64,000 nt of DNA from Candidatus Woesearchaeota archaeon (GCA_030154045.1 JASKKU010000002.1:7663-71662); one strand, 5' to 3'; shown: positions 555-56,433, numbered from the stretch's first letter. Numbers and translations: made by a program. Notes: a model not told the origin generated them from the sequence alone.

Positions 555-1073
555 TTATTCGTGCAGCCTTGCTGAAAGCACTGTTATTGATGAGATTGAT
601 AAACCAATACCAACAATCTTTGCGAAAAATCCTACAATCGGATAGAACGCAATCAGCGCCATCACCATGTTAATTGCACTATATGTAATTGTCCTATTAT
701 TCTCTACTAATGAGATTACAAAGTTGACAAAAGTTAATGGCAGCACACAGTAATAGCCTAAGACCTCATAGTTATATCCAAAAAGACCTAAGAAGAACCC
801 TGCAGCAACTATGAACTCTAGAATAAACTGCAACAAGTTCATATAGTTTATAACTAGTTTCTTTGGTTTATACACTTCTTTCTTAATCTCAACTTTTCTA
901 ACTGGTTTTTTTGTAGATTTAGTTTTTGCTTTCTTGCTTACTTTTGGTTTCGTTACTTTAGTCTCTACAGCCTTTTTTGTTTTCGGCTTAGCTTTCGCGG
1001 TTTTCTTGGTTGTGCTTTTTTTAGCAGCTTTTTTAGAACTATTAATCTTTTTACTTGTTTTTTTAGCAGACAT
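555..1073 (-). CDS. hypothetical protein with a histone-H1-like lysine-rich N-terminal tail fused to a C-terminal polytopic membrane domain
   Basis: The first ~75 aa are K/A/T/P-rich (KKTAKAKPKTKKAVETKVTKPKVSKK). About four hydrophobic helices follow. Confidence 0.3.
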   Translation of the reverse strand: MSAKKTSKKINSSKKAAKKSTTKKTAKAKPKTKKAVETKVTKPKVSKKAKTKSTKKPVRKVEIKKEVYKPKKLVINYMNLLQFILEFIVAAGFFLGLFGYNYEVLGYYCVLPLTFVNFVISLVENNRTITYSAINMVMALIAFYPIVGFFAKIVGIGLSISSITVLSARLHE

Positions 1074-1159: not shown

Positions 1160-1639
1160 TTAATCTTTTTTGTCTTTTGAAAACGCCTGATTGATTATTA
1201 GCAAAAACAAACCTATGGAAATCATCGCATCAGCCAAATTGAAAAAAGGTACGCCCAACACACTGATAAAATCAATAACTCTGCTATAAATTATTCTGTC
1301 TATAAGATTTCCAATCGAACCGCTAAGAATCAAAACAAAACTCCAAAAAATGGCTTTATTAGAGTTAAAGATTCTTTTTAGATTAATTAAAATTGCTCCG
1401 ATAACCAATATAGGAACAACAAGAAGTATTCCTTTAAAGCCACTTAACAATCCAAAAGCCGCGCCAGGGTTTTGGACAACTTTTATTTTTAGTATGCTTA
1501 TCTTATCAAGACTAAATTCAAATAAAGGATTTAATCTAAAAAAAAGAAGTTTTAAAACTTGATCTGCAAGAACTAAAATTGCGCTTAGACTTAAAAACAA
1601 AACACCTTTTTTCTTACTTTTATTAAAATCTGCGGCCAT
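1160..1639 (-). CDS. lspA: lipoprotein signal peptidase II
   Basis: Three LspA signature blocks are present: NPGAAFGLLSG, GNLIDRIIYSRVIDFI and FNLADAMISIG. The 159 aa length and four TM helices fit. Confidence 0.75.
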   Translation of the reverse strand: MAADFNKSKKKGVLFLSLSAILVLADQVLKLLFFRLNPLFEFSLDKISILKIKVVQNPGAAFGLLSGFKGILLVVPILVIGAILINLKRIFNSNKAIFWSFVLILSGSIGNLIDRIIYSRVIDFISVLGVPFFNLADAMISIGLFLLIINQAFSKDKKD

Positions 1640-2048
1640 TTTGTTGGTTCTCTAGCGTATAAAGTCTCTGATTAATATTTTCAAGCAATACTTTAAGGGT
1701 TTCAATCTTTGAACTGATAACTTCAAGCTCTTTTTCTATTCGTAATAACTCTGGGTCGTTATATCTTTTTTGTTCTCTTGCAAAGTTGTTGCTTTGAATC
1801 TGACTTTGAACCTGATTAAAAGGATTCATGCTTTCATTATATCCTTGATTTTGTGTTGTAAATGTATTAGACTCAAAGTTACTGTTTTGATTTAGGATAT
1901 CTGAGTTTAATTCATTATCTATTCCAATTCTGTCTTTTGTTAATTGGTCTTCTTGCAAAGTTTTATTTTCATTGTTTAAATCATCAAACTTGTATTTTTC
2001 CAACCCTTTCTTTTTCTTTGAACCAAAGATATTTCCTAGAAAACTCAT
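1623..2048 (-). CDS. hypothetical Q/N-rich protein with a C-terminal coiled coil
   Basis: This is an ORF of low-complexity Q/N/S composition. Its stop overlaps the lspA start. Confidence 0.3.
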   Translation of the reverse strand: MSFLGNIFGSKKKKGLEKYKFDDLNNENKTLQEDQLTKDRIGIDNELNSDILNQNSNFESNTFTTQNQGYNESMNPFNQVQSQIQSNNFAREQKRYNDPELLRIEKELEVISSKIETLKVLLENINQRLYTLENQQNGRRF

Positions 2049-2644
2049 ATTTTCACCAAGTTTATGATCTTTGAAAACAAACTGCTTTTGTTTTTTAAAT
2101 TTTCACTTTTGTTATTTTTTAGTTTTATGACTTGTTTGTTTAAAAAATCAATCTTTGTTTTTGGATACACTTTCAAATCTCCTAAAACATACATCGTCGT
2201 TAATCTAAACAGACTAGTCTTATTGATATTCTCCCTGATAATAGAACAAACTTCTTGATTATTTAACTTAGTATCTTCATCTTGTTGCATCAAGCTGGAA
2301 TTAAACAAATTACTTTCTAAGTTAATCACAACTATCGGGATTTTTCCTTTTATACTTGAAATATTTTCAGGGTCAAAACTTTCATTACTCAAACTATAAT
2401 TCTCATTATAACATAGAATTGAAGATTTAGTTGAGTCTGCCTTTTCAAGGATAAACCCAATCTCATTTCCAATAATCCCTGTTAAATTGTTTTGAATAAA
2501 AAAAATGTTTAAAATGTAAAACACAATAAGTAATCCTATGCTAAATAATGCGAGTTTTACAACAAATCTTATGACTTTGCTGATCAAGTAAAGAAACAAT
2601 ACAATTATACAGATTACAATGATTAGTTGAGTTATAGGGGTCAT
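2045..2644 (-). CDS. hypothetical membrane-anchored protein
   Basis: It has an N-terminal TM helix (ITQLIIVICIIVLFLYLI) and a second one (LALFSIGLLIVFYIL). Its stop overlaps the next gene (ATGA). Confidence 0.3.
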   Translation of the reverse strand: MTPITQLIIVICIIVLFLYLISKVIRFVVKLALFSIGLLIVFYILNIFFIQNNLTGIIGNEIGFILEKADSTKSSILCYNENYSLSNESFDPENISSIKGKIPIVVINLESNLFNSSLMQQDEDTKLNNQEVCSIIRENINKTSLFRLTTMYVLGDLKVYPKTKIDFLNKQVIKLKNNKSENLKNKSSLFSKIINLVKI

Positions 2645-2645
2645 T

Positions 2646-3416
2646 TTAGATTAATGTTTTTATTCTTTGATGGAAGATTTGAAAGAACAGGTATATACCC
2701 ATAGGTAAAAACCACATCAAAAGTATTGCACTTGCGCTTTGCCATTTCTTTATTTTGAATGCTGAACTTAAAGCCCAGGTCTGAAAAATAAAAGCATACA
2801 TACCTATGACAAAGGTCGTTATTAAGAGTGGAGAACCTTTGAGATAAAGCAGAGGTATGAAAAATAATAGCGCGTAACTGTTAACTATAGCAATCTCTCT
2901 TGTTTTATTCTCTCCAGAGAACAAGAAGAAAAACAATTGTTGTACATATGCAATTAATTGTATTGCAATGTATAATAAAAACGGCGAAATTATTGCTACT
3001 ACACCCGCATAAGGTGCAATTTCTACCTTGGAGGTATCCCAAAACAAAATAGCTCCTGCTAAGGCTATAGCAAAAACAGAATACAAGACAAATAATCTTT
3101 TGGTGCTTGTAACAAAATAGGCTTTTCTTAGACTTTCTTTGTTAAAGAACAATAATCCAAAGAAAGTTTTTAAAGAATCAAAAGCAATCTTAAGGTAATT
3201 CTGTCCATAACTTTTGTCAAAGTCCTCTGATACATCCTTGTCCATCTTTTTCTGATACTCTTCTATGCCTCTAGCTAAATCATCGTGAACACCGTAAGTT
3301 ATCTCTTTTGTAGTCTCTTTCTCTTTTTCTATCTGTTTTATAAACTCCTCTTTTTGTTTTAGGAACTCTTCAAAATCCTTAAATTCGTTGGACATAACTT
3401 CTTTTTGTTTTTTCAC
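2646..3416 (-). CDS. hypothetical polytopic membrane protein
   Basis: A charged, coiled N-terminus is followed by about five predicted TM helices. No motif was recognised. Confidence 0.35.
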   Translation of the reverse strand: MKKQKEVMSNEFKDFEEFLKQKEEFIKQIEKEKETTKEITYGVHDDLARGIEEYQKKMDKDVSEDFDKSYGQNYLKIAFDSLKTFFGLLFFNKESLRKAYFVTSTKRLFVLYSVFAIALAGAILFWDTSKVEIAPYAGVVAIISPFLLYIAIQLIAYVQQLFFFLFSGENKTREIAIVNSYALLFFIPLLYLKGSPLLITTFVIGMYAFIFQTWALSSAFKIKKWQSASAILLMWFLPMGIYLFFQIFHQRIKTLI

Positions 3417-8977: not shown

Positions 8978-9095
8978 AAAGGAGTATTTTCGTTTCAGTT
9001 AAAAATTTTTCCAAATAATCTACATAAAAGTGAAAACTTTTCGTAAAAGTAGAACAAAACATTTAAATTTTTAAGATTTTTACAATTTCTTGAAA

Positions 9096-9374
9096 AGATG
9101 GCTAGCGCACTCTCGGGGTACTCCTGAGGAAAGTCCGCCCATCGCTTTAAAGGGGCCCTCGAAAGAGGGATGCTTAAAAGGCATAGCTCTTGGACAGAAA
9201 TAAAACCCCCTGGATTAAGGATGAGGTTTCCGAAGCTCTTAAAGAGCGAGATAACAAACCGACATTCTCCAGGGAAGGGTGAAACGCCAAGCTCCCCTGA
9301 TGCAAGGTTTAACCGCAAAGTTGAATGTGCGCACACTCTTTAAAGAGTGACAGAAGGCGGCTTATGGCCATCTT
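9096..9374 (+). ncRNA. rnpB: RNase P RNA (archaeal/bacterial type A-like)
   Basis: This is a GC-rich island in an AT-rich region. It carries CR-I-like GAGGAAAGTCCGCCC, CR-II-like AGGGTGAAACGCCAAGC and CR-IV-like ACAGAAGGCGGCTTATGGCC. The terminal P1 pairing is AGATGGC (9096-9102) with GCCATCT (9367-9373). Confidence 0.6.
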
Positions 9375-9464
9375 TTCGTTTATTTTTGTATTTTTAGAAA
9401 TTTTTTAGAACTTCTTTTGAGGAGTGACATACTTTTTTAAATTTCTTTTTCTTTTTTCACTTCG

Positions 9465-31533: not shown

Positions 31534-32643
31534 TTATTCTGGCAAGATTTTCAAAAGGTTTAACTTTAACCCTTTTTGATTTAGTTCAACCTTTTTAATG
31601 ATATTGAAACCTCTTTTTTCAAATTCTTCAGTTAGGTTTGTTATTATGTTTAAATCTAATTTAATTACAGGCAATACATACTTTTTAATTTTGTCTAAAA
31701 TGTCGTTATTTTTGTATTTACTTAAACTAATATAAGTTATCGCTTTGTCAAAAGGTTCATCGAAAGAAACATCAAAAAATCTCAAATCAATCTTAGAAAA
31801 TCTAATCTTTTTAGCTATGCCTGCAATCTTAGCATTTTTTCTCGCAGCATCGATGTTTGGAAAAGCCATATCTGTAGCAAACAGGTTTATACCTTCAAAT
31901 TCTTTTCCGTCAACCTTGTTAAAAATTTTGTCAAACTCAAAATCTATGCTTGCAGAATTGGATAATTCAGTTTTGTCATAGAACCTAACAGAACGATTGC
32001 TTAAGTAATGGTATGCTTCAAGTATTAAAGTGTTATCTTTGCACAAGAAATCTACTACTTTCTGTTTCCTGTTTAGCTCTGAAAACAATACTAATGCAAA
32101 CGCTGTTAAGGGTTTTAGTCCAGTTTTATTAACGAAAACTCGATATGTTCTTCTTGACAAGTCTATGTTAAATAAACTTAAACCCAAAACGCAATGGAAT
32201 GAATTATTTATTTTTTGTATACTTAAAGTAAATTTCCTTTTAGCAGACTTAAAATTCTTATTAGCTGAAAATCTCTCGCTTAAACTATCCGCAAGTTGAT
32301 TTGCCAACTCAAAACTCTTTGATTTTATTATCTCGTCATTTGTTTCAATAGAAACAGAAAAATCAGAAAGTTCTCTTAAATTAGGGATACTCTTTAAATC
32401 AAGTTTCTCAAATATTTGTTTGATTAATTCTTGTTCATTGATTTCATTTAACTCTTTTTCAAAAAGCACAAACCCTAAATCAGAGATTGATTGACTTAAG
32501 TAAGAAAGTTCTATTGCTTTTTCTAAGTTGGCTTCAAACAAAAAGATGTTGTTTACTAAGCTACCCTTTATCTCAAATCGTTCCTCAAATTCCTTCTTAA
32601 GAAAATTTTCTAAACCAAAGTCTGTTTTAGAAAAAAGTTTCAT
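31534..32643 (-). CDS. hypothetical protein, coupled to gyrA
   Basis: This 369 aa protein has no recognisable catalytic motif. Its start overlaps the gyrA stop (ATGA). Confidence 0.3.
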
Positions 32644-35048
32644 TTTGCAATCTTTGAGAAAGATATAACTTTGTCTCCTTCAGATAACCTAATAATTCTG
32701 ACGCCTGAAGAATTTCTACCATAAACTGGGATCTCCGAACAGTTCACTCTTATAACATTGCCTTGAAGAGTAACAACCAGCAATTCATCTTCATCGTTAA
32801 CGATTTCACAACCAATAACATAGCCGTTTTTATCACTGAGTTTTATATTTCTGATACCTTTTCCGCCACGATTCGTTATTCTATACTCATTAATTTCAGT
32901 TCGCTTTCCGAAACCTTCTGATGTAATTGTTAGTATGCTATCACTTTCGTTGTTTGAAACTTGCAATGAAACTACCTCATCATTGCTTTGCAAAGTTATG
33001 CCTTTAACGCCCATAGAATTCCTTCCTGTTTCTCTTACAGCTGCTTCATTGAACCTTATTGCTTGTCCTTGTTTCGTAAACATAAACAACCAGGAGCCTA
33101 CTTTAGATAATTTAACATCAATTAATTCATCGTGTTCTCTCAACTTTATAGCAATTATGCCTGTGCTCCTTGGAGTTGAGAACCTTTTGAGGGCAGTTTT
33201 CTTAATTAAGCCTTTCTTTGTTGCAAATACCAAGAATCCTTCTTCTAATTCTTTTAAAGGAATCACTGCTTTTGCAGTTTCATCTTCGTCCAATTTTAAT
33301 AAATTGGTTAAAGGTTTCCCGCGAGACTGTCTGCTACCTTCAGGAACTTGATATACTTTCAGCCATTTAACTCGGCCTTTGTTTGTGAATACTAAAAGAT
33401 AATCTTTTGAATTCGCGATGAATATATCTTTCAAATTGTCCTCATCCCTTAATTTAGCACCGATAACTCCCTTCCCACCGCGTCTCTGAACCTTATATTC
33501 TTCAAGGTCAGATCTCTTTATATAATCCTTGTTGCTTATCATGATTACCCAAGGTTTGTCCTCAATCAAATCTTCGAAGTCTATCTCAACATCTTCTTCA
33601 AAGTTAAAATCAGTCCTTCTCTCATCACCATATCTTTGTTTAATCTCTAAAGTTTCCTTTTTGATTATGTCAAGAACTTTCTGTTCAGATTCAAGTATGC
33701 TTCTCAATTCTTCAATTGTTTGTTTTAATTTAGTTTCTTCATCCTTTAGTTTTGTTCTCTCTAATTTTGTAAGTTTCTGTAATCTCATCTCTAATATTGC
33801 TTTGGCTTGGATTTCAGTGAGAGAATATCTTGAAATTAATGAGCTCTTAGCCTCTTCAACACTCTCACTAGCCCTTATTAATTTGACAACATCATCCAAA
33901 TTTTCTTGAGCAATGATTAATCCTTCAACAATATGCAACCTGTCTTCAGCTTTCTTTAAATCAAACGCAGTCCTTCTCTTTATAACTTCTTTCCTAAAAT
34001 CAATGAACTTTTCAATCAATTGTTTGATATTAAATACCTTAGGTCTTTTTCCGTCTAAAGCCCTCAATTGAACGCCGAAAGTAACCTGTAACTGAGAGTG
34101 TTTGTATAATTGATTCAGTATAATGTCTTCATTTACGCCTTGTTTTAATTCAAATACAATACGAATTCCTTCTTTATTTGACTCGTCCCTTATGTTGCTT
34201 ATGCCGTCAATAGTGCCTCTTTTAACTAATTCAGCAATTTGTTCGATTAAAGAAGACTTGTTTACTTGATAAGGAATTTCAGTAATAACTATGAGCTTTT
34301 TATTCTTCTTCTCTTCAAAGTGTGCTTTCGACCTAAGGATTAGTTTACCATAACCTGTGTGAAAATAATCGTAAATTCCTTTTTGATTTATTATTGTTGC
34401 ACCAGTTGGGAAATCCGGACCTCTGATTATTTTGCTTAATTCTAAAATCGTTATGTTTGGATTGTTTATTGTTTCAACAATGGCATCACAAACTTCGTTT
34501 ATATTATGTGGAGGTATGTTTGTAGCCATGCCCACAGCAATTCCCGATGAACCGTTAATTAATAATTGAGGTATTGTTGTCGGTAAAACTACCGGTTCTT
34601 TTAAACTACCGTCAAAGTTTGGCACGAAATCTACTGTATCTTTTTCAAGGTCTTTAAGGAGTTCTTCGCCTATTTTAGAAATCCTTGCTTCAGTATACCT
34701 CATGGCTGCAGCACTGTCTCCGTCAATGCTTCCAAAGTTACCTTGTCCTTCAACCAAAGGATACCTTAACGAGAATGGCTGAGCCATTCTTACAAGAGCA
34801 TCATAAACAGCAGAATCTCCATGAGGATGATATTTACCCAAACAATCTCCAACGATTCTTGCACTTTTTTTGAAAGCACTAGAACTAGTTACACCTAACT
34901 CATGCATAGAATAAAGGACTCTTCGATGTACTGGTTTTAAACCATCCCTTACATCAGGCAAAGCTCTGCCGATAATGACAGACATTGCGTAATCCAGATA
35001 TGAATTCCTTAACTCTTCCTCGATTGGTTGCTCAACGATTCTGCCCAT
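32640..35048 (-). CDS. gyrA: DNA gyrase subunit A
   Basis: [22 protein letters not shown], the active-site region [10 protein letters not shown], and C-terminal beta-pinwheel repeats are present. Length is 802 aa. Confidence 0.9.
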
Positions 35049-42154: not shown

Positions 42155-45100
42155 TTGGGTCTGATTCAAATGAAACTTTTTGGAAATAAAAAAGTATTCT
42201 TATTCTTTTTGTTAATTTTTATAACACTGCTGTTTTTATTTACCATAATTTCTCAATCTAATTTTGCCGTGGCAGGCTGCTGTTTAAACCCTGATAGCGA
42301 TTACCTCTGCCAAGATGTAAGTGTATCAGATTGTTGTAGTAATGATTATTCCTGTCAACAGACCTATTCTGAGAGCAATTGTGATTCTCTTCCTGAATGT
42401 GAACCTGTTTGTTGTTGTCATTATGATGAAAATGGCGTTGAAAGCTCGGCGGTTGTTCTTAACATCAGTTGTGATGGAAACAAGTTTGCGCTTTCAGGAA
42501 AGTCTTGTTCAGACATTTGTAATGATAACAAACCTGTGCCTGTTAGTGACGATTGTAATTTAAGTACGAACCCGCTTTCAAAAATAAACGTTGATTTTGA
42601 CCTATCAGGATATCCTAGAAAAATACTTTTAAATTGGGAAGATCCCTGTTTTGGCGAAGTCCTTTATTATAATGTTTCTCGTATTGACCTTGAATCCCGG
42701 ACACAAGAGCATTTGGATAACGTTATGCAAACTTCATATACAGATACTACCTTTAATTTTTTAACCAAATATCAATATAACATTACCGCAGTATATTCTA
42801 CCAATAAAGTCTACACAATACTCTCTGATACAATAAATACAGGCAATATTGAATGCTGGATGGCTCCTCCAGGAGCGTTTTGTATAGATTTTCCGTATTA
42901 TCTAAAGTACACGGGTTATTTTGGATATGATAATCAAGAAGCTTTCTCAAATTTTTTACAACAGGAGGGTTATGCTGAGAATTATAATGCTGCGTATAGA
43001 TGCGAAGGTCGGGATCTGAAATTAATACAAGATTGTGGTCGCAGTGGAAAGTTTTGTGTAATAGGAAGTAGTGGCGAACCAATATGCTCTGAAGCTAAGG
43101 ATTGTTCTACATATAATTATGATTTAGGATTAAATCCTGATAAAGAAGACTGTGAAAACAATGCAGGCTGTTATTTTGACTCTGGTGAGGGCTTGGGCGG
43201 CTTATGCTTATCTTGTGATGCTAGTTATTTAGACAGAACTTGCTATTCGTATAGGTCTAAGGAAGCGTGTGAAAAAGATCTATGTAGTTTTGCAGTTTCT
43301 ACAGGTGGGTGCGAATGGGTCTCTTTAAATGATGAATTAGGTTTGGGTGTTTGTATAGATAAATCAAACATCAATTGCAAGGATTGTAATTTATATCTTA
43401 AGGACTTGCCTTATCAGACTTGTGAAGACCTCTATAAAGAGGATAGCAGATTTTCAGGGTGCGCAATTTGTGGAATAATTGATAGTTGCACGCAGTATAA
43501 TAATAGCAACTTATGTATAGGTGGCCAAGAAGCTCAAATTGATTTAACAACACACAAGATTATACCTAGTGCCGACTTCTGTGGTTTAGGTGTCTGCGAT
43601 TATTTTGAGACTGATTCGACATGTGCTAAAAATATTGATTTAGACCCTGATGAAAGGGATTGTAACAAAGGAGGTTCAAATGAGCGGGAGCAATGTGAAA
43701 AAGATATTTTTGTTCCACAAGTTAAGTTAAAACTAGATTTTGACAAAGATGATTTTGAATTAGGCAAGAATATAACATTTATTGTCTCTGATAGACGAGA
43801 ATCAGAGACAGTTAACTTCTTTAGTTCTGGAGAAGTTCTCAGTGATGGCTATGCTCTATATCTTTGTGTAGGCTCTGATTGTTTCACCAAAGACCATTTG
43901 AGTTGGAAATCTTTTGATAAAACTTCTGTTTCATCCTGTGATTTAATCTCAGCAGGGCTAAATGTTCATACTTCTAATCCTCAGACACTATACTATTTTG
44001 TTAAAGACCCTTCAGGCAATGTTGCTGAAGTTCAATCTTTGAATATTGTAATAAATGCAACAAGAGTTTGTAAACCAGGAGATACTAGACCTTGCCCAAA
44101 ACAGCAAGGTGTATGTAATGGTGCTATCCAGCATTGTAATCTTGTTTGTCCCGCAGAGAATATTGGTTTTTATTCAAGGGATTGTTCTTTTGAGGAATAC
44201 TCAGATAATACCAATGGTCCGTACGAAGCTTTTGAAACAACTGTAGACGGTTTAGATAACGACTGTGACGGCTTGATTGATGAAGGTGCTAAGAAAGAAG
44301 TATTGTGTAATGGTATTGATGATAATGGTGATGGTCGAGTTGATGAAGGCTATCCTGATTTTGACGGGGACAACAACCCTGAAATTTGTGATTACAATAA
44401 TTTTGATGTTAGTAAAGATAGTGAGGGTCACATAATACACCATCCAAAAATAAAACAAGGAATTAACTTGACAAAATATGGTTATAGATACAATGCAAAA
44501 TATTGTGGCGCTGATTGTGTTGATTTAGATGCTGATAATGATGCAATTGTTGATTCTACTTCCACAGGCGAACCTATTGATAAAGAGAACACTACAAAAG
44601 TTGGCTGTATAGTTATCACTTCAGGTCCTTTTAAAGGGGTTGCAAAGGATTCAGACCAAGATGGTATTTGTGATGGTCTTGATAACTGCGTTAATGTAAA
44701 CCCTGATTGTGCAGTTGAAGGTTACAATTCTCCAAACAAGGACCTTATAGGATGCCCTGTAGATTGTAAAAGCGAGAGCTGTCTTGGAGAACCATACTGC
44801 CAAGAACAATGCAATTGTGATTCCTGTGCTGATTTTTATGGTATGTCCTCTTGTGATTATGCACACTGCACTTTGGGTTGTGGATGTTATTTTCAAACAG
44901 CAACCACTACATGTATGGATTGCTCTTTTGTGACTTCATGTGAAAAATACAATGATGCGCAAAGTTGCAGGAGCAATTCGTGTCATTTGTTGTCCAAATG
45001 TGAATGGAGTGATAGTATAGGTTGTTATACTGATAATGATAATGATGGGATTCCAGATGATAAAGACCCTTGTCCTTTTGATTCGCAAAATGACGCTGAT

Positions 45101-48100
45101 GGCGATGGTTTTTGCTGGAAGGAATCGAATTCTAATCTAGTTGGGAAGACTGTAGATGTTAATGGTAGAACTTTTGTCTTAAAAGGAGGGTTTGATTGCG
45201 ATGACAATAATGATGAAATTTATCCTAGAACAGACTTTGTTGAAGGTAACGAGTCTTTGTGCGATTTTAAGGATAATGATTGTGATGGCTTAATTGATGA
45301 AGGTTGTCCTTGTGTTAAAGGAGACTTTAGGTCTTGTGGTAATCCGTTTTTAGACTATTCGGAGTTCTCGAAATGTAATCGAGGTATACAATATTGTATT
45401 GATGGGGTTTGGTCTGATAATTGTTCGGGGTTTAAAGGTCCAGAAATTGATAACGAGGCTGAACAAAATTTTAAGAGTACTAAGTATTGTGATGGTTTTG
45501 ATAATGACTGCAATGGTCTTATAGATGATAAATGCCCTTGCTTGCCTGATGAGACGATTCCTTGCGGTACTGATTTGGGCGTATGCAGTTTTGGTTATAG
45601 AAAATGCGGCGATGACTTGAGGTTTGAAGACAAATGTGTTTATACAAACGATTCCCAAAAACCTCAAAAGGAAATCTGTGGTAATTATCTAGATGATGAT
45701 TGTGATGGTTCCATAGATGAAGGTTGTCCATGTGTCGAAGGTCAAACAATGTCTTGTCCTGATTCAACTTCTTTAGTTTTTTCAAACTCTCAGAATGCTT
45801 ATACATCTGTTTTTAACTCGGCATGCAGACAAGGCGTACAAAAATGTATCTCAGGAGTTTGGACTACCTGTGACGGTTTTGTAGGCCCTCAAGTGATGGT
45901 AGAAGACCCTTCAACAAATCCTCAACTGTGCGATTCTAAGGATAATAATTGTGATGGCTTAATTGATGAAGGTTGTAGCTGTTATTCTAATCAGAGCTGT
46001 GCAACCAATTGCGGTTGGGGAACTCAGGAGTGTGAAGCCGGGATTTATTCAGATGAATGTATTGGCGCAAGAGTTCCTTCTGCTGAAAAGTTAGATAATG
46101 TAGATAATGATTGTGATGGTTTGATTGATGAAGGTTTCCCTGAAAAATACTGCGATGGCAGAGATGATGATGGTGACGGTTGGGTTGATGACGGCTGCCC
46201 TGATTTTGATGGGGATAATGACCCAAGGATTTGTGACTTTTCAAATCCTCTACAAGATAAAGAAGGGAAGATTCACTTTAAGACAAAAGACAAGAAGTAT
46301 TACTGTGGCGCAGATGCAATCGATTTAGATAAAGATAATGATGGAGTGTTAGATGATTCAGACAGAGACCCTTCAACTCCTTTAGGATGTGAAGTTAATC
46401 GGGATAATGGGATTGCCATAGACACTGATGGAGACGGTATCTGTGATGGCCTTGATAAATGCCAGGAAAGTTTGCCAGGTTGCCCTGTTTATGGCTATGA
46501 CTCTTCAGATAAGGATGTTATAGGTTGTCCTAAGGACTGCGCAAATTCTAAGTGTATAACTTCAAGTTATTGTAAGTGTCCATCGTGTGATGTTTGTGAG
46601 GAATCTTTCTTAATGCCACAGGGTTGCCAGCCGTTGCAATGCTCTTACTGTGCTATGGGACAGTGCGCAATTTCTGAGGTTGGTGAGTCTGAACAATGTA
46701 CTTCTTGTACAAACATAAAAAGTTGCGAAGGTTATATTACTGAAGAAGATTGTAATCGCAATCCTTGTTTAACAAATGTTTCTTGCGTGTGGAATGGTAC
46801 AAACTGCTTGCTAGATACTGATGGGGATGGTTTAGCAGATAATATTGATCCTTGTCCGCAGGATAAATTGAACGATAACGATGGTGATGGTTATTGTGCA
46901 CACCAAGCAAACGATGACTTTGTAAAAAGAGGGGAATTGTTTGGAGGAAACGATTGCAATGATAATGATGCTAGTATTCACATAGGCTGTGGTTGTATTG
47001 TTGATAAAGACAATGATGGGTATGGTCAAGGTTGCTTATGGGGCCAAGATTGTGATGATACTGATCCAGAAAAAAATACACATTGTGACAACGGTTGTAT
47101 TGAAGATATGGACGGTGATGGCTTTGGTAGAGGTTGCTCAGCAGGCCCTGATTGTGATGACTCTAATGCTACGATAACTAATCAATGTGATCCCAGTGTG
47201 TTTTGTTCAAATGGTTACTTAGATAATGATGAGAGTGATATAGATTGTGGTGGAATTTGCGAGCCTTGTGATGCGGGTAAAAAATGTAAAACTGATTCAG
47301 ATTGTAAATCAAATATTTGTAACCGCGGTTTATGTTATGATGAAGAATTATGCACCAATGGAATAAAAGACGATTTTGAATCGGATGTGGATTGTGGTGG
47401 ACCTTGTAATCTTTGCCAGAATGGACAGAGCTGTATTAGTGATTTAGATTGTAAATCAAACAATTGCGTTAATGGAGTATGTTCAATACCTACTTGCGAT
47501 GATAACAAGAGAAACCAGGATGAAACTGACGTAGATTGTGGAGGGCATATCTGTAAACCTTGCGATATTGGAAAGCATTGCAAAGCAAACAGCGATTGCA
47601 TCTCATCAAAATGCGATCAAGATACTCAAAAATGTATCCCTTCAAAAGAAACTTCGGTAACAAAAAAAGATTCAGATGGAGATGGAATGCCTGATTATTG
47701 GGAATTAAAATATGGTTTGAATCCAAATGATGGCTCTGATGCTGATTTAGATTTAGACAAAGATGGTTTGTTTAATTATAAGGAATACATTCTAAACCTA
47801 GATCCAACAAATCCAGATACTGATGGCGACGGAATTAAAGACGGAAAAGAAGTTGATAAAGGTCTAGACCCAAGAGTTCCAGATAAAAGAGGACCTCTCG
47901 GATTGATTATTTCACTAATAATCTTATTGACTGGTGGCGGCTTAGGTTATGTATATCGGGATAAATTATGGTTCTGGCTTAATAAGTACGGTATTACAGA
48001 TTTTGTCTATAAAGCTCTTAAAAAATCAGGAATTTTAGACTTTGTTTATCTAAAATTGCTCAAAAAGACACCGCCAACGCTTGAAGCAATAAAGAAAGTA

Positions 48101-48328
48101 AAGACTCCAAAAACAACACAAAATATAAACATTAACGAAAAACAAAAAGTGATTAAATCTAAACCTGCTCAAGTAAAACCTGCTCCGATTCAGCCGAAAA
48201 AGCCAAAAGTCTCTGAAAAACTTGAAAAGAAAATTAAAGAAAAGTCCAAGATATTTGACGCTTTTGAAACAGAAGATACTGAAAAAAATAAAAAAGATGA
48301 GGATCTGTTTAAGGAGTTTGAAAAATGA
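42155..48328 (+). CDS. giant cysteine-rich cell-surface protein (2057 aa): signal peptide, MopE-like DNDCDGLIDEG repeats, thrombospondin-type-3-like Ca-binding repeats, C-terminal TM anchor
   Basis: An N-terminal signal/TM sequence (VFLFFLLIFITLLFLF) is followed by a Cys-dense ectodomain. The ectodomain has six DNDCDGLIDEG motifs, D-x-D-x-DG-x-C-D-G-L-D-x-C repeats (DQDGICDGLDNCVNVNPDC), and DSDGDGMPDYWELKYGLNPND..DTDGDGIKDG. A TM helix (LGLIISLIILLTGGGLGYVY) and a K/P-rich tail follow. Confidence 0.7.
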   Translation: MGLIQMKLFGNKKVFLFFLLIFITLLFLFTIISQSNFAVAGCCLNPDSDYLCQDVSVSDCCSNDYSCQQTYSESNCDSLPECEPVCCCHYDENGVESSAVVLNISCDGNKFALSGKSCSDICNDNKPVPVSDDCNLSTNPLSKINVDFDLSGYPRKILLNWEDPCFGEVLYYNVSRIDLESRTQEHLDNVMQTSYTDTTFNFLTKYQYNITAVYSTNKVYTILSDTINTGNIECWMAPPGAFCIDFPYYLKYTGYFGYDNQEAFSNFLQQEGYAENYNAAYRCEGRDLKLIQDCGRSGKFCVIGSSGEPICSEAKDCSTYNYDLGLNPDKEDCENNAGCYFDSGEGLGGLCLSCDASYLDRTCYSYRSKEACEKDLCSFAVSTGGCEWVSLNDELGLGVCIDKSNINCKDCNLYLKDLPYQTCEDLYKEDSRFSGCAICGIIDSCTQYNNSNLCIGGQEAQIDLTTHKIIPSADFCGLGVCDYFETDSTCAKNIDLDPDERDCNKGGSNEREQCEKDIFVPQVKLKLDFDKDDFELGKNITFIVSDRRESETVNFFSSGEVLSDGYALYLCVGSDCFTKDHLSWKSFDKTSVSSCDLISAGLNVHTSNPQTLYYFVKDPSGNVAEVQSLNIVINATRVCKPGDTRPCPKQQGVCNGAIQHCNLVCPAENIGFYSRDCSFEEYSDNTNGPYEAFETTVDGLDNDCDGLIDEGAKKEVLCNGIDDNGDGRVDEGYPDFDGDNNPEICDYNNFDVSKDSEGHIIHHPKIKQGINLTKYGYRYNAKYCGADCVDLDADNDAIVDSTSTGEPIDKENTTKVGCIVITSGPFKGVAKDSDQDGICDGLDNCVNVNPDCAVEGYNSPNKDLIGCPVDCKSESCLGEPYCQEQCNCDSCADFYGMSSCDYAHCTLGCGCYFQTATTTCMDCSFVTSCEKYNDAQSCRSNSCHLLSKCEWSDSIGCYTDNDNDGIPDDKDPCPFDSQNDADGDGFCWKESNSNLVGKTVDVNGRTFVLKGGFDCDDNNDEIYPRTDFVEGNESLCDFKDNDCDGLIDEGCPCVKGDFRSCGNPFLDYSEFSKCNRGIQYCIDGVWSDNCSGFKGPEIDNEAEQNFKSTKYCDGFDNDCNGLIDDKCPCLPDETIPCGTDLGVCSFGYRKCGDDLRFEDKCVYTNDSQKPQKEICGNYLDDDCDGSIDEGCPCVEGQTMSCPDSTSLVFSNSQNAYTSVFNSACRQGVQKCISGVWTTCDGFVGPQVMVEDPSTNPQLCDSKDNNCDGLIDEGCSCYSNQSCATNCGWGTQECEAGIYSDECIGARVPSAEKLDNVDNDCDGLIDEGFPEKYCDGRDDDGDGWVDDGCPDFDGDNDPRICDFSNPLQDKEGKIHFKTKDKKYYCGADAIDLDKDNDGVLDDSDRDPSTPLGCEVNRDNGIAIDTDGDGICDGLDKCQESLPGCPVYGYDSSDKDVIGCPKDCANSKCITSSYCKCPSCDVCEESFLMPQGCQPLQCSYCAMGQCAISEVGESEQCTSCTNIKSCEGYITEEDCNRNPCLTNVSCVWNGTNCLLDTDGDGLADNIDPCPQDKLNDNDGDGYCAHQANDDFVKRGELFGGNDCNDNDASIHIGCGCIVDKDNDGYGQGCLWGQDCDDTDPEKNTHCDNGCIEDMDGDGFGRGCSAGPDCDDSNATITNQCDPSVFCSNGYLDNDESDIDCGGICEPCDAGKKCKTDSDCKSNICNRGLCYDEELCTNGIKDDFESDVDCGGPCNLCQNGQSCISDLDCKSNNCVNGVCSIPTCDDNKRNQDETDVDCGGHICKPCDIGKHCKANSDCISSKCDQDTQKCIPSKETSVTKKDSDGDGMPDYWELKYGLNPNDGSDADLDLDKDGLFNYKEYILNLDPTNPDTDGDGIKDGKEVDKGLDPRVPDKRGPLGLIISLIILLTGGGLGYVYRDKLWFWLNKYGITDFVYKALKKSGILDFVYLKLLKKTPPTLEAIKKVKTPKTTQNININEKQKVIKSKPAQVKPAPIQPKKPKVSEKLEKKIKEKSKIFDAFETEDTEKNKKDEDLFKEFEK
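44305..45115 (+). repeat. internal duplication copy A within the giant surface-protein gene
   Basis: Protein segment CNGIDDNGDGRVDEGYPDFDGDNNPEICDY...DADGDGFC is collinear with segment CDGRDDDGDGWVDDGCPDFDGDNDPRICDF...DNDGDGYC of copy B. Confidence 0.6.
46151..46898 (+). repeat. internal duplication copy B within the giant surface-protein gene
   Basis: See copy A. Shared blocks are YCGADxxDLDxDND, DxDGICDGLDxC, GYxSxxKDxIGCPxDC and DxDPCPxD. Confidence 0.6.
47204..47640 (+). repeat. three tandem ~45-aa Cys-rich repeats (D-x-D-C-G-G-x-C-x-x-C ... S-D-C-x-S-x-x-C)
   Basis: The three units are CSNGYLDNDESDIDCGGICEPCDAGKKCKTDSDCKSNICNRGLC, CTNGIKDDFESDVDCGGPCNLCQNGQSCISDLDCKSNNCVNGVC and CDDNKRNQDETDVDCGGHICKPCDIGKHCKANSDCISSKCDQDTQKC. 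Confidence 0.65.
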
Positions 48329-48780
48329 AAAAGGCAGCAATACAACTAAGTTTTGGATTAGTTCTTACAATACTTATTATCGTTGCAATCTTTTTTGTTG
48401 CACTGAAAGGTATTTCAGTATTGATGTCTAATGTATCTCAAATGCAAAAAGACCAATTTGTTTCTGATCTCACAAGTTTTTACAAGCAAACCCTGAGACT
48501 GCCTTCAGGTTCATCCATTCCAGTTAAAATCAGTTCAAAATTTGATACACTTTGCTTTTATAATAAAAATGGTGATGGTTCTTTAAATAATCTGGCGCCT
48601 TATGAAGATGTTCTCACTATAGAAACAAAAAACGTCTTTGGAATATATCGTGGCAAACTTATTCCATTAACCTCTTTTTCTTTAGCAACTCCAAAAAAAG
48701 AGGTTTGTTTTAATAGAACTACCTCAGGCCTGTTTAATTTCACAATGATTTCAAAAGGCGATAGTATAGACATAAAATGA
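48325..48780 (+). CDS. small secreted/membrane protein with a class III (type IV pilin-like) signal-peptide-like N-terminus
   Basis: The N-terminus is MKKAAIQLSFGLVLTILIIVAIFFVA: a short basic tip, a QLSF motif, then a hydrophobic helix. The start overlaps the stop of the giant gene (ATGA). Confidence 0.4.
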   Translation: MKKAAIQLSFGLVLTILIIVAIFFVALKGISVLMSNVSQMQKDQFVSDLTSFYKQTLRLPSGSSIPVKISSKFDTLCFYNKNGDGSLNNLAPYEDVLTIETKNVFGIYRGKLIPLTSFSLATPKKEVCFNRTTSGLFNFTMISKGDSIDIK

Positions 48781-49811
48781 AATTGTTTAAGAAATCTGCA
48801 TTACAAATCTCATTTAATCTTATTGTATCCATACTTATTGCAATTGTAGTGTTTATTGTAATCTTTAAGACAAGCCAAGTCTTTTTAGATTATGCTCATA
48901 AAAAAGGTTCTTTTGATGCGTTTACTTATCTTGAATTGAATTTAAAGAATCTTTATAGCGAATCCGATTATGTAAAAGCAATAGAATTAGATAAACCAAC
49001 ACAGATCTCAGTTATTTATCCAAACATAGTTATCCCAAGGATTGAAAAAACAATTGATATCAATAATAAACTCATAATTGCACCTGCAAATATGTTCACA
49101 TCATCATTAACTTTGTTCAGCAAGAAATCTGAGTTTCCAATAGATTCCATAAATTATTTGTTTATCTTTCCTAAGGACAAATACTTGTTGCTTTACAATT
49201 CTTCAGATAAGCTAACAGAGATTGTAAACTCAGAGTTGCCTGATAAAATAACCAATTTAGAAAAAAAAGATGAATATTTAATTCATAAATTCATAGTTGA
49301 TAAACCTCTTGAGATTTCCCAGATTTGTGGTAAAAAGGATTACTGCCTCGTGATTGTATTTAACTCCCCTTCAACTTATGATGATTTATTAAATATATTT
49401 AAAGACTATAGGACCCTTGAAATTCTACACGTTTCAGGCAATGAAACTTTTGGTAAAGTAACTTTGGCTTCAGGCCAGAATGTAAGTTACTTCGATAGAT
49501 ATACTTTACTTTCTGCAATAATCAGTAATAATTTTGAGAACTATAATGAATTTATTAAGACTTTAGATAAATATGTTAACTTGACTTTTTTAGTAGAATC
49601 TAAAAGGTTGTCTTATCTGTTTGATTTACAGCCTACTGAATTATGTAAAAATTTAACTCAAGATTTAAACAATACTTTATTTAATATAACAAGACTTATG
49701 AATTCTTTAAGTAATGATATTAACGATAATATTTTTTCAGAACTTCACGGAAATCATTCAAAAGTTTTAGAAATAAATTATAAGCTAAAAGAAAATGATT
49801 GCTACGAATAA
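48777..49811 (+). CDS. pilin-like/N-terminally anchored protein (344 aa)
   Basis: The N-terminus is MKLFKKSALQISFNLIVSILIAIVVFIVIF, the same KK-[AS]A-[IL]Q-[LI]SF pattern as the preceding gene. An ATGA overlap is present. Confidence 0.4.
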   Translation: MKLFKKSALQISFNLIVSILIAIVVFIVIFKTSQVFLDYAHKKGSFDAFTYLELNLKNLYSESDYVKAIELDKPTQISVIYPNIVIPRIEKTIDINNKLIIAPANMFTSSLTLFSKKSEFPIDSINYLFIFPKDKYLLLYNSSDKLTEIVNSELPDKITNLEKKDEYLIHKFIVDKPLEISQICGKKDYCLVIVFNSPSTYDDLLNIFKDYRTLEILHVSGNETFGKVTLASGQNVSYFDRYTLLSAIISNNFENYNEFIKTLDKYVNLTFLVESKRLSYLFDLQPTELCKNLTQDLNNTLFNITRLMNSLSNDINDNIFSELHGNHSKVLEINYKLKENDCYE

Positions 49812-50283
49812 AAGCCAAATAAAAAGCATACAAACATTTTTTTTGGTATTCTTTTTTATAATTATACTTGTAATTATTTTGTTAATTGTTTTTCAGAATA
49901 TTTACTCTTCTAATTTAAAATCGTCCAATGACCTTTTGTCAAAGATGGCTTTACAGAAAGCAATCGCAATTACAAAATTCCCTTTGTTTGTAAATCAAGA
50001 AAATGAGTTTTTTGATATCTATCGAGTTAAAGCTTATCTTGATTTAAAAGAATCTCATCCAGAGCTTGAGTCTTGGTTGGAAGCAAATTTTGGAGACAGC
50101 ATTGTTGAGCTTGTATTGTTAGATGACAGCTTAGACCCTAGAGAAGAATTTTTGATATACAATCACACACCTGTTAATTTTAAAAAGGATGTTGCGTTGA
50201 AATTTCAATTGCCTATTTTAGTATATAATTCGACTCTAAGAAAATCAACTTTAGGTTTGCTTAATATCACGCTTTTTGAGTGA
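49795..50283 (+). CDS. small N-terminally anchored protein (162 aa), possible minor pilin-like
   Basis: The N-terminus is MIATNKSQIKSIQTFFLVFFFIIILVIILLIVF. It overlaps the previous gene by 17 nt. Confidence 0.3.
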   Translation: MIATNKSQIKSIQTFFLVFFFIIILVIILLIVFQNIYSSNLKSSNDLLSKMALQKAIAITKFPLFVNQENEFFDIYRVKAYLDLKESHPELESWLEANFGDSIVELVLLDDSLDPREEFLIYNHTPVNFKKDVALKFQLPILVYNSTLRKSTLGLLNITLFE

Positions 50284-50770
50284 GCATATGCAAAAGAAAG
50301 CGCAATCAGAAATTTTAGGTATTGTGTTTATGATAGTTATAGCTTTAGTTTTAATATTGATCCTTTTATTTTATGGTAATAGACCAACCTTTGATGAGCA
50401 AGGGAATTTAATAATTATAGCCAATCGTTATTATAATACGATATTTTCAGATAATCTTTATACAAACTGTAGCCAAGATATGTCCTTTTTAACACTTTTG
50501 AGATATTATTTTATGGGATTAGTAACAGAATGTGATGATGGCTCTAATGTAGAATCGTTCTTAAACAATTATATAAACAAAACCCTAAGATATTTTTTGG
50601 CGAACAACGGCTTGGCATACAAACTAATCATTTCTGATTCTCACAACAGTTTAAGTTTTGAGAATGGAGTTTGCAACGGTTTTGTTTATTACCTCCCAAC
50701 CCAAACAATACTTAAACCTGACTCAGGCCGCATTAACATTTCTCTTAGCGTTTGTAAGAGAAAAAGATAA
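50276..50770 (+). CDS. small N-terminally anchored protein (164 aa), possible pilin-like
   Basis: The N-terminus is MSEHMQKKAQSEILGIVFMIVIALVLILILLFY. KKAQ|SEIL resembles a prepilin peptidase site. An 8-nt overlap is present. Confidence 0.35.
   Translation: MSEHMQKKAQSEILGIVFMIVIALVLILILLFYGNRPTFDEQGNLIIIANRYYNTIFSDNLYTNCSQDMSFLTLLRYYFMGLVTECDDGSNVESFLNNYINKTLRYFLANNGLAYKLIISDSHNSLSFENGVCNGFVYYLPTQTILKPDSGRINISLSVCKRKR

Positions 50771-54494: not shown

Positions 54495-56433
<1,939 letters not shown>

Follow-up and report, generated by a model that had tools for sequence, protein, structure and literature searches.

Lipoproteins are abundant in archaea. In bacteria, lipid-modified prolipoproteins are cleaved before the +1 Cys by the signal peptidase LspA, an enzyme adapted to diacylglyceryl-cysteine and inhibited by globomycin or myxovirescin; even there, the N-acylation enzymes Lnt, Lit and LnsAB are optional. 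To our knowledge, AliA and AliB of Haloferax volcanii are the only characterised enzymes of archaeal lipoprotein biogenesis. AliA and AliB (arCOG02177 and arCOG02178) belong to the same pathway as LspA, the maturation of lipobox proteins, and have been reported in DPANN and Euryarchaeota (PMC12462473). They act in lipidation and are unrelated to LspA; the peptidase step of that system is unassigned (PMC12462473). The view that LspA is absent from archaea, from which the first-pass annotation of this DNA had started, is indeed the published one. According to a FEMS review of 2018 (PMC6098224) and a Nature Microbiology review of 2022 (PMC7613921), homologues of SPase II, Lgt and Lnt had not been identified in any archaeon. 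The same was stated in the AliA/AliB paper of 2025, in which finding the lipoprotein signal peptidase was named as the next task (PMC12462473), and again in its 2026 follow-up (PMC13631571). A full-text literature search returned nothing linking lspA with DPANN or Lgt with Woesearchaeota.

The DNA analysed here (the window) is a 64,000-nucleotide stretch from a Candidatus Woesearchaeota archaeon. An uninterrupted lspA reading frame, from ATG to stop, lies near one end (Table 1). The three LspA motif blocks noted in the first pass were found in its product (VVQNPGAAFGLL, GSIGNLIDRIIYSRVIDF and PFFNLADAM; in short form QNPGAAFG, GNLIDRIIYSRVIDF and FNLAD). The Pfam model PF01252 (Peptidase_A8), with a gathering score of 25, was matched at 96.3 bits (E=2.4e-27), and profile positions 2-140 of 142 were covered. 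The NCBIfam equivalog TIGR00077 (lspA) was matched at 83.2 bits, above its cut-off of 73.95. With the window protein as phmmer query, the solved LspA structures 9emz, 5dir and 6ryo were recovered at E ~1e-12. In a 67-sequence alignment (A1), residues D26, K30, N57, F62, G107, G110, N111, I113, D114, R115, V121, D123, F133, N134 and D137 were invariant, and G59 and A136 were kept in at least 90% of the sequences. All 15 invariant residues occur in the window protein as well as in 12 further sequences of archaeal type. They include the predicted catalytic Asp pair, D123 (in VIDF) and D137 (in FNLAD), which aligned residue by residue to D124 and D143 of P. aeruginosa LspA, the catalytic dyad of that enzyme (PMC9360617).

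An AlphaFold2 model was computed from alignment A1 (mean pLDDT 92.3, pTM 0.86). It comprised four long helices (2-36, 69-91, 95-118 and 135-154), corresponding to the four predicted TM helices, and beta-cradle strands at 40-57 and 121-127. A Foldseek search of the PDB gave significant matches to LspA only (6ryp, 5dir and 6ryo; E 3e-10 to 1e-8), with TM-scores of 0.70-0.78 (6ryp 0.78, 5dir 0.74). The next match had E >1. The motif blocks, both family models and the structural matches thus agree with the first-pass reading of a canonical, intact LspA. It is likely that the product of the frame is a functional intramembrane aspartyl protease of the LspA family (signal peptidase II), belonging to a Woesearchaeota (DPANN) archaeon.

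Compared with the bacterial enzymes of P. aeruginosa (5DIR/9EMZ) and S. aureus (6RYO/6RYP), the window protein is alike in length (~150-170 aa) and shares the four TM helices and beta-cradle, the strictly conserved residues and the Asp dyad, with TM-scores of 0.74-0.78. Its identity to the solved enzymes is, however, only 25-28%, and the loop that joins its catalytic motifs has 5 residues fewer than that of the P. aeruginosa enzyme. The genomic setting also differs: the host is archaeal, no ileS, lgt or rluD lies nearby, and a small archaea-specific gene overlaps the start of lspA. Homologous lspA genes in the bacterial cluster ileS-(dksA-like)-lspA-lgt-rluD are among the closest non-archaeal relatives (33-40% identity), yet none of ileS, lgt and rluD flanks lspA in the archaeal loci examined. 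The gene is a new member of the LspA family in an unexpected domain.

Table 1. Positions of features in the window and in related loci (L numbers).
Feature	Location	Coordinates	Strand	Details
g002, 172 aa	window	555..1073	-	Lys-rich N-terminus, C-terminal TM segments; downstream of lspA
lspA (lipoprotein signal peptidase, signal peptidase II, peptidase family A8)	window	1160..1639	-	159 aa; Pfam and TIGR00077
g004, 141-aa small protein	window	1623..2048	-	alignment A2; no Pfam match
g005, 199-aa membrane protein	window	2045..2644	-	two N-terminal TM helices; third gene of packed cluster
g006, 256-aa polytopic membrane protein	window	2646..3416	-	first gene of cluster
113-aa ORF	window	8995-9336	-	almost certainly spurious
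Archaeal RNase P RNA	window	9093-9376	+	158.7 bits
DNA gyrase subunit A	window	32640-35048	-	DNA_topoisoIV and six gyraseA_C blades
g043, 2057-aa Cys-rich surface protein	window	42155..48328	+	Cu-binding_MopE and TSP3_bac repeats
Four small ORFs	window	48325-50770	+	after g043
GroEL/GroES pair	window	54495-56433	-	Cpn60_TCP1 and Cpn10
g004-family member	L005	9685-10005
g004-family member	L006	8050-8469
g004-family member	L165	10001-10387
g004-family member	L166	10001-10381
Peptidase_S49	L005	13339-14277
Peptidase_S49	L166	12982-13914
Peptidase_S49	L168	12235-13158
Peptidase_S49	L126	12336-13274		by sequence similarity only
Peptidase_S49	L155	12234-13172		by sequence similarity only
GpsA, bacterial-type	L165	18625-19575	-	PF01210 NAD_Gly3P_dh, PF07479, PF20618 GPD_NAD_C_bact
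Lipobox signal peptide	L042			MKKTNIIILVAFLVIISGC
Lipobox signal peptide	L077			...LVSLLSLASAC
Lipobox signal peptide	L126			MKKIMTLLSFLVIFIIGC
Lipobox signal peptide	L167			...AAFLGASSC = MSKGLKSIILAAFLGASSC
Lipobox signal peptides, two	L168			...LLASILAAC; ...LLVFLTSC = MKNKILFTILLVFLTSC
Lipobox signal peptide, possible one more	L165

The archaeal type of the genome, proposed from the sequence in the first pass, was confirmed by the archaeal RNase P RNA and by the protein markers of the window, namely Nre, RadA/Rad51, Gins51, an aIF5B-type IF-2, the archaeal primase small subunit and SecY. The 113-aa ORF lies opposite the RNase P RNA, with which it overlaps, and is almost certainly spurious. 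Other bacterial-type genes are also present in the window, a GroEL/GroES pair and DNA gyrase subunit A. Topoisomerase VI A/B is encoded just past the window end (L170).

The small gene g004 lies directly upstream of lspA, and the end of its reading frame shares 17 nt with the start of lspA. Its product begins with a basic, amphipathic segment (MSFLGNIFGSKKKK), for which the family consensus is MGxLxKxxFWKKK. The linker that follows is of low complexity, P/Q/N-rich in the window and P/Q/G-rich across alignment A2. The conserved C-terminus is a coiled-coil-like helix (KELEVISSKIETLKVLLENINQRLYTLE; family pattern …LEVISSKLDAI.A.IE..NQRLA.LE). A Pfam search of g004 gave no significant family; SF-assemblin and DUF5320 were rejected as coiled-coil noise (E ~2e-3). 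Of the 8 GTDB archaeal loci, 7 had a family member adjoining lspA by a g004 HMM, as had 12 of the 80 metagenome loci. Among 5.8 billion proteins, 106 homologues were recovered, and every named one came from Woesearchaeota, Nanoarchaeota or an 'archaeon'. Three distant members, from contigs 617, 203 and 39 kb long, were also followed by PF01252: it lay immediately downstream in L165 and in L166, whereas in L167 it was two genes further on. A toxin-antitoxin pair stands between the g004 homologue and lspA in one of these three long-contig loci. The g004 family is specific to Woesearchaeota and is almost always found directly upstream of an archaeal-type lspA, often overlapping it. Its product is probably a membrane-peripheral partner or regulator.

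The remaining neighbours of lspA in the window are of narrower distribution. No Pfam match was obtained for g005, g006 or g002. By jackhmmer, g005 was found only in L001-L004 and L085/L086, and g006 was confined to the window's own LspA subclade (L085, L086), in which g002 is likewise kept with lspA (L086). This subclade (P0002-P0004, L085 and L086; 52-53% identity) has the gene order g006-g005-g004-lspA-g002, unlike the other archaeal loci. Most of those carry the block S8e … HhH-GPD, TM protein, g004-like gene, lspA, TM199, aIF-1A, RDD and Peptidase_S49, where TM199 is a 199-aa TM protein on the strand opposite to lspA. Peptidase_S49, an SppA-type signal-peptide peptidase, was found 2-3 kb from lspA in L005, L166 and L168, and was absent from the 64-kb window. 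The membrane proteins g005 and g006 were considered as a conserved lipid transferase (Lgt analogue). This was rejected because neither has a Pfam match, both are restricted to their own subclade, and g005 has two TM helices.

Loci were retrieved by scanning one genome per GTDB species with exact peptide patterns taken from the query. Because of this seeding, the counts of archaeal and bacterial relatives are biased lower bounds. Among the best 80 species-representative loci, 8 were from archaeal MAGs, five of them labelled Woesearchaeota, Nanoarchaeota or Nanoarchaeia (L064 and L077 also fall in these groups), with one 'archaeon' and one Methanosarcinales. The lspA gene was intact, with the invariant residues, in all 8 of these GTDB archaeal loci. 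The Methanosarcinales locus (L007, CAYXZV010000030.1, labelled 'uncultured Methanosarcinales archaeon', G+C 0.35) shares synteny with L006 of Nanoarchaeota, and the LspAs of the two loci are ~80% identical; the label is probably mistaken or the binning doubtful. Its partner-gene and TM199 HMM scores were identical to those of L102. A search with an archaeal LspA profile recovered at least 120 separate clusters at the 90%-identity level; the matches listed scored 209-223 bits. An organism was named in 5 of the 120 cluster names listed, each time as 'signal peptidase II' from Nanoarchaeota or Candidatus Woesearchaeota archaeon. Archaeal genes flanking lspA elsewhere included those for ribosomal S8e, eIF-1A, Spt5-NGN, NucS, Rpb1 domains, S-layer proteins, L37e and LSM. 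LspA is therefore widespread in Woesearchaeota and Nanoarchaeota and is not peculiar to one genome. The NCBI record of the protein identical to that of the window reads 'MAG: signal peptidase [Candidatus Woesearchaeota archaeon]'; annotation pipelines have already given the correct signal peptidase label to these archaeal proteins.

Selection was estimated as dN/dS by the Nei-Gojobori method. Values of 0.04-0.14 were obtained for five archaeal-type lspA pairs (one labelled Methanosarcinales and four of unlabelled metagenome contigs assigned by synteny) and for the window against L085, with dS saturated in several pairs. For L126/L155 and L092/L145, dS was unsaturated at ~1.1 and dN/dS was ~0.10-0.11. 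Archaeal-type lspA is under purifying selection, with dN/dS ~0.1.

An LspA phylogeny, proposed as a check in the first-pass annotation, was built as a neighbour-joining tree (93 LspAs, 155 columns, 200 bootstraps). It gave no resolution: neither a supported archaeal clade nor a supported bacterial sister group was obtained, and the archaeal sequences were left ungrouped. For the window LspA, the archaeal HMM gave 107.9 bits and size-matched bacterial HMMs gave 105.7 ± 5.2 bits, the latter value biased upward because the bacterial set had been picked by similarity to the query. These profile scores do not place the window LspA closer to the main archaeal clade than to the bacterial sets. As neither tree nor profile scores are informative here, conserved synteny is the sole positive evidence for one shared origin of the archaeal LspAs and for a single ancient acquisition. 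The gene was probably acquired from Bacteria long ago by an ancestor of the Woesearchaeota, in a horizontal acquisition probably limited to one DPANN lineage, and would then have been inherited mainly vertically.

Candidate substrates were sought with the G+LPPv2 lipobox pattern on ORFs called by a longest-ORF heuristic, which is crude. No match to this pattern was found in the 64-kb window. The only lipobox-like N-terminus there is that of the surface protein g043 (…FAVAG↓CC, Cys42). It is borderline, since its hydrophobic stretch is too long for G+LPPv2 and cleavage at AVA↓G by signal peptidase I is just as conceivable. The N-termini of the four small ORFs after g043 (MKKAAIQLSF…, MKLFKKSALQISF…, …KSQIKSIQTFF… and MQKKAQSEILG…) resemble archaeal class III (type IV pilin-like) signal peptides. 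The related archaeal contigs with LspA, ~400 kb in total, yielded ~7 plausible signal peptides of lipoproteins (Table 1). In the first locus set, lipobox density was 1.4 per 100 kb on archaeal contigs and 4.5 in bacterial control loci (the archaeal value being about a third), and the reversed DNA of this set gave no lipobox signal peptide. The lipobox scan proposed in the first pass thus returned one borderline case in the window and textbook lipobox signal peptides on the related contigs. From these sequences, the presence of LspA substrates in the lineage is plausible.

Lgt was sought with E. coli Lgt as query, the sequence of which was verified against 5azb. Searches were run by tblastn and by jackhmmer over the ORFs of 165 loci, and further loci were searched with an HMM built from the matches. 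There were 10 loci with Lgt. Six of these were examined closely and were plainly bacterial, typically with the order ileS, lspA, lgt and rluD, and the g004 partner gene occurred in none of the 10. In the bacterial loci L011, L030, L046, L051, L057, L093, L140 and L164, lgt lies directly downstream of lspA. No Lgt was found at E up to 10 in the window, in 10-kb extensions on each side or in ~400 kb of archaeal LspA-flanking DNA, and L001-L004 were likewise without a match. Pfam scans of the unassigned membrane proteins of the window gave no PF01790.

These DPANN archaea are host-dependent and scavenge lipids. In the mechanism proposed, LspA would cleave Sec-exported prolipoproteins N-terminal to the lipid-modified lipobox Cys, as in bacteria, and the signal peptide would enter the enzyme between TM2 and TM4. 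Lipidation of the Cys beforehand could be carried out by an AliA/AliB-type enzyme or by an Lgt encoded elsewhere in the genome of ~1 Mb. An AliA-type step upstream of LspA is quite possible, if short of probable; an Lgt-type step is improbable.

One reading is a hybrid pathway in which AliA/AliB-type enzymes attach an archaeol thioether and the acquired LspA supplies the signal peptidase II step. It is put forward tentatively, at somewhat below an even chance. Among DPANN, for which a wealth of lipoproteins is predicted, AliA (arCOG02177) has been reported 'with some gaps', and an archaeal lipoprotein signal peptidase was still missing (PMC12462473). The lack of Lgt near any archaeal lspA examined, and the lipobox signal peptides on related contigs, also agree with it. 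Against it, most lipoprotein-rich archaea, for example haloarchaea, do without LspA, so another enzyme that removes signal peptides must exist. In its most specific form, this proposal has a captured LspA acting on archaeol-thioether lipoproteins, with g004 as a translationally coupled, membrane-peripheral coiled-coil accessory subunit; that combination is speculative and rather doubtful.

A complete bacterial pathway would instead comprise an acquired Lgt elsewhere in the genome, perhaps with G3P-type lipids, and an LspA that processes diacylglyceryl lipoproteins. The first-pass annotation had pointed to a bacterial-like lipoprotein pathway, possibly with Lgt elsewhere. Since lgt adjoins lspA in bacterial relatives, joint transfer of the two genes is conceivable, and the window also holds the bacterial-type GyrA and GroEL/GroES noted above. 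On the Woesearchaeal contig of 617 kb (L165), a gene for bacterial-type GpsA, 8 kb away from lspA, is possibly a hint of bacterial-type G3P lipid metabolism. However, neither jackhmmer nor the HMM recovered Lgt in the window or in the ~400 kb of archaeal flanks, which represent a fraction of each genome. The order ileS-lspA-lgt-rluD was seen in none of the archaeal loci examined, and a survey of 524 archaeal genomes, DPANN included, reported no Lgt homologue (PMC12462473). This pathway is accordingly considered unlikely.

The LspA fold might also have been kept, as a decaying or repurposed relic, for a task outside proteolysis or outside lipoprotein processing, such as that of a membrane scaffold for g004. 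The tight coupling of lspA to this lineage-specific gene and the scarcity of lipobox proteins in the window would fit such a role, but retention of the 15 invariant residues in 13 sequences, dN/dS ~0.1 and the canonical fold make it very unlikely.

An identical lspA with identical archaeal neighbours was found on at least 22 contigs, and the four of these examined came from four different sequencing runs. On one side of lspA these contigs carry Nre, GINS51 and a ParA-like ATPase, and on the other HIT, ELP3, eIF-1A and a histone. Contamination, misbinning or chimeric assembly, by which a truly bacterial gene would only appear to lie on an archaeal contig, has a negligible probability and was rejected: the nearest named relatives outside the small clade are bacterial (~40% identity), but the gene order recurs in these independent assemblies, the archaea-specific g004 overlaps lspA, Nre, GINS51, ELP3, eIF-1A and the histone lie within 2-9 kb, G+C is uniform around lspA at ~0.30, and the lspA pairing recurs next to Rpb1, S8e and S-layer genes on archaeal contigs of 203 kb and 617 kb. 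Recurrence of the intact frame on these contigs likewise excludes the truncation or frameshift artefact that the first pass had allowed for.

Neither signal-peptide removal in haloarchaea or methanogens nor the general archaeal SPase II problem is explained by the Woesearchaeota LspA. Within Woesearchaeota, a canonical, selected and lineage-wide LspA corrects the repeated statement that SPase II is absent from archaea, and it provides a concrete, easily testable enzyme for archaeal lipoprotein maturation.
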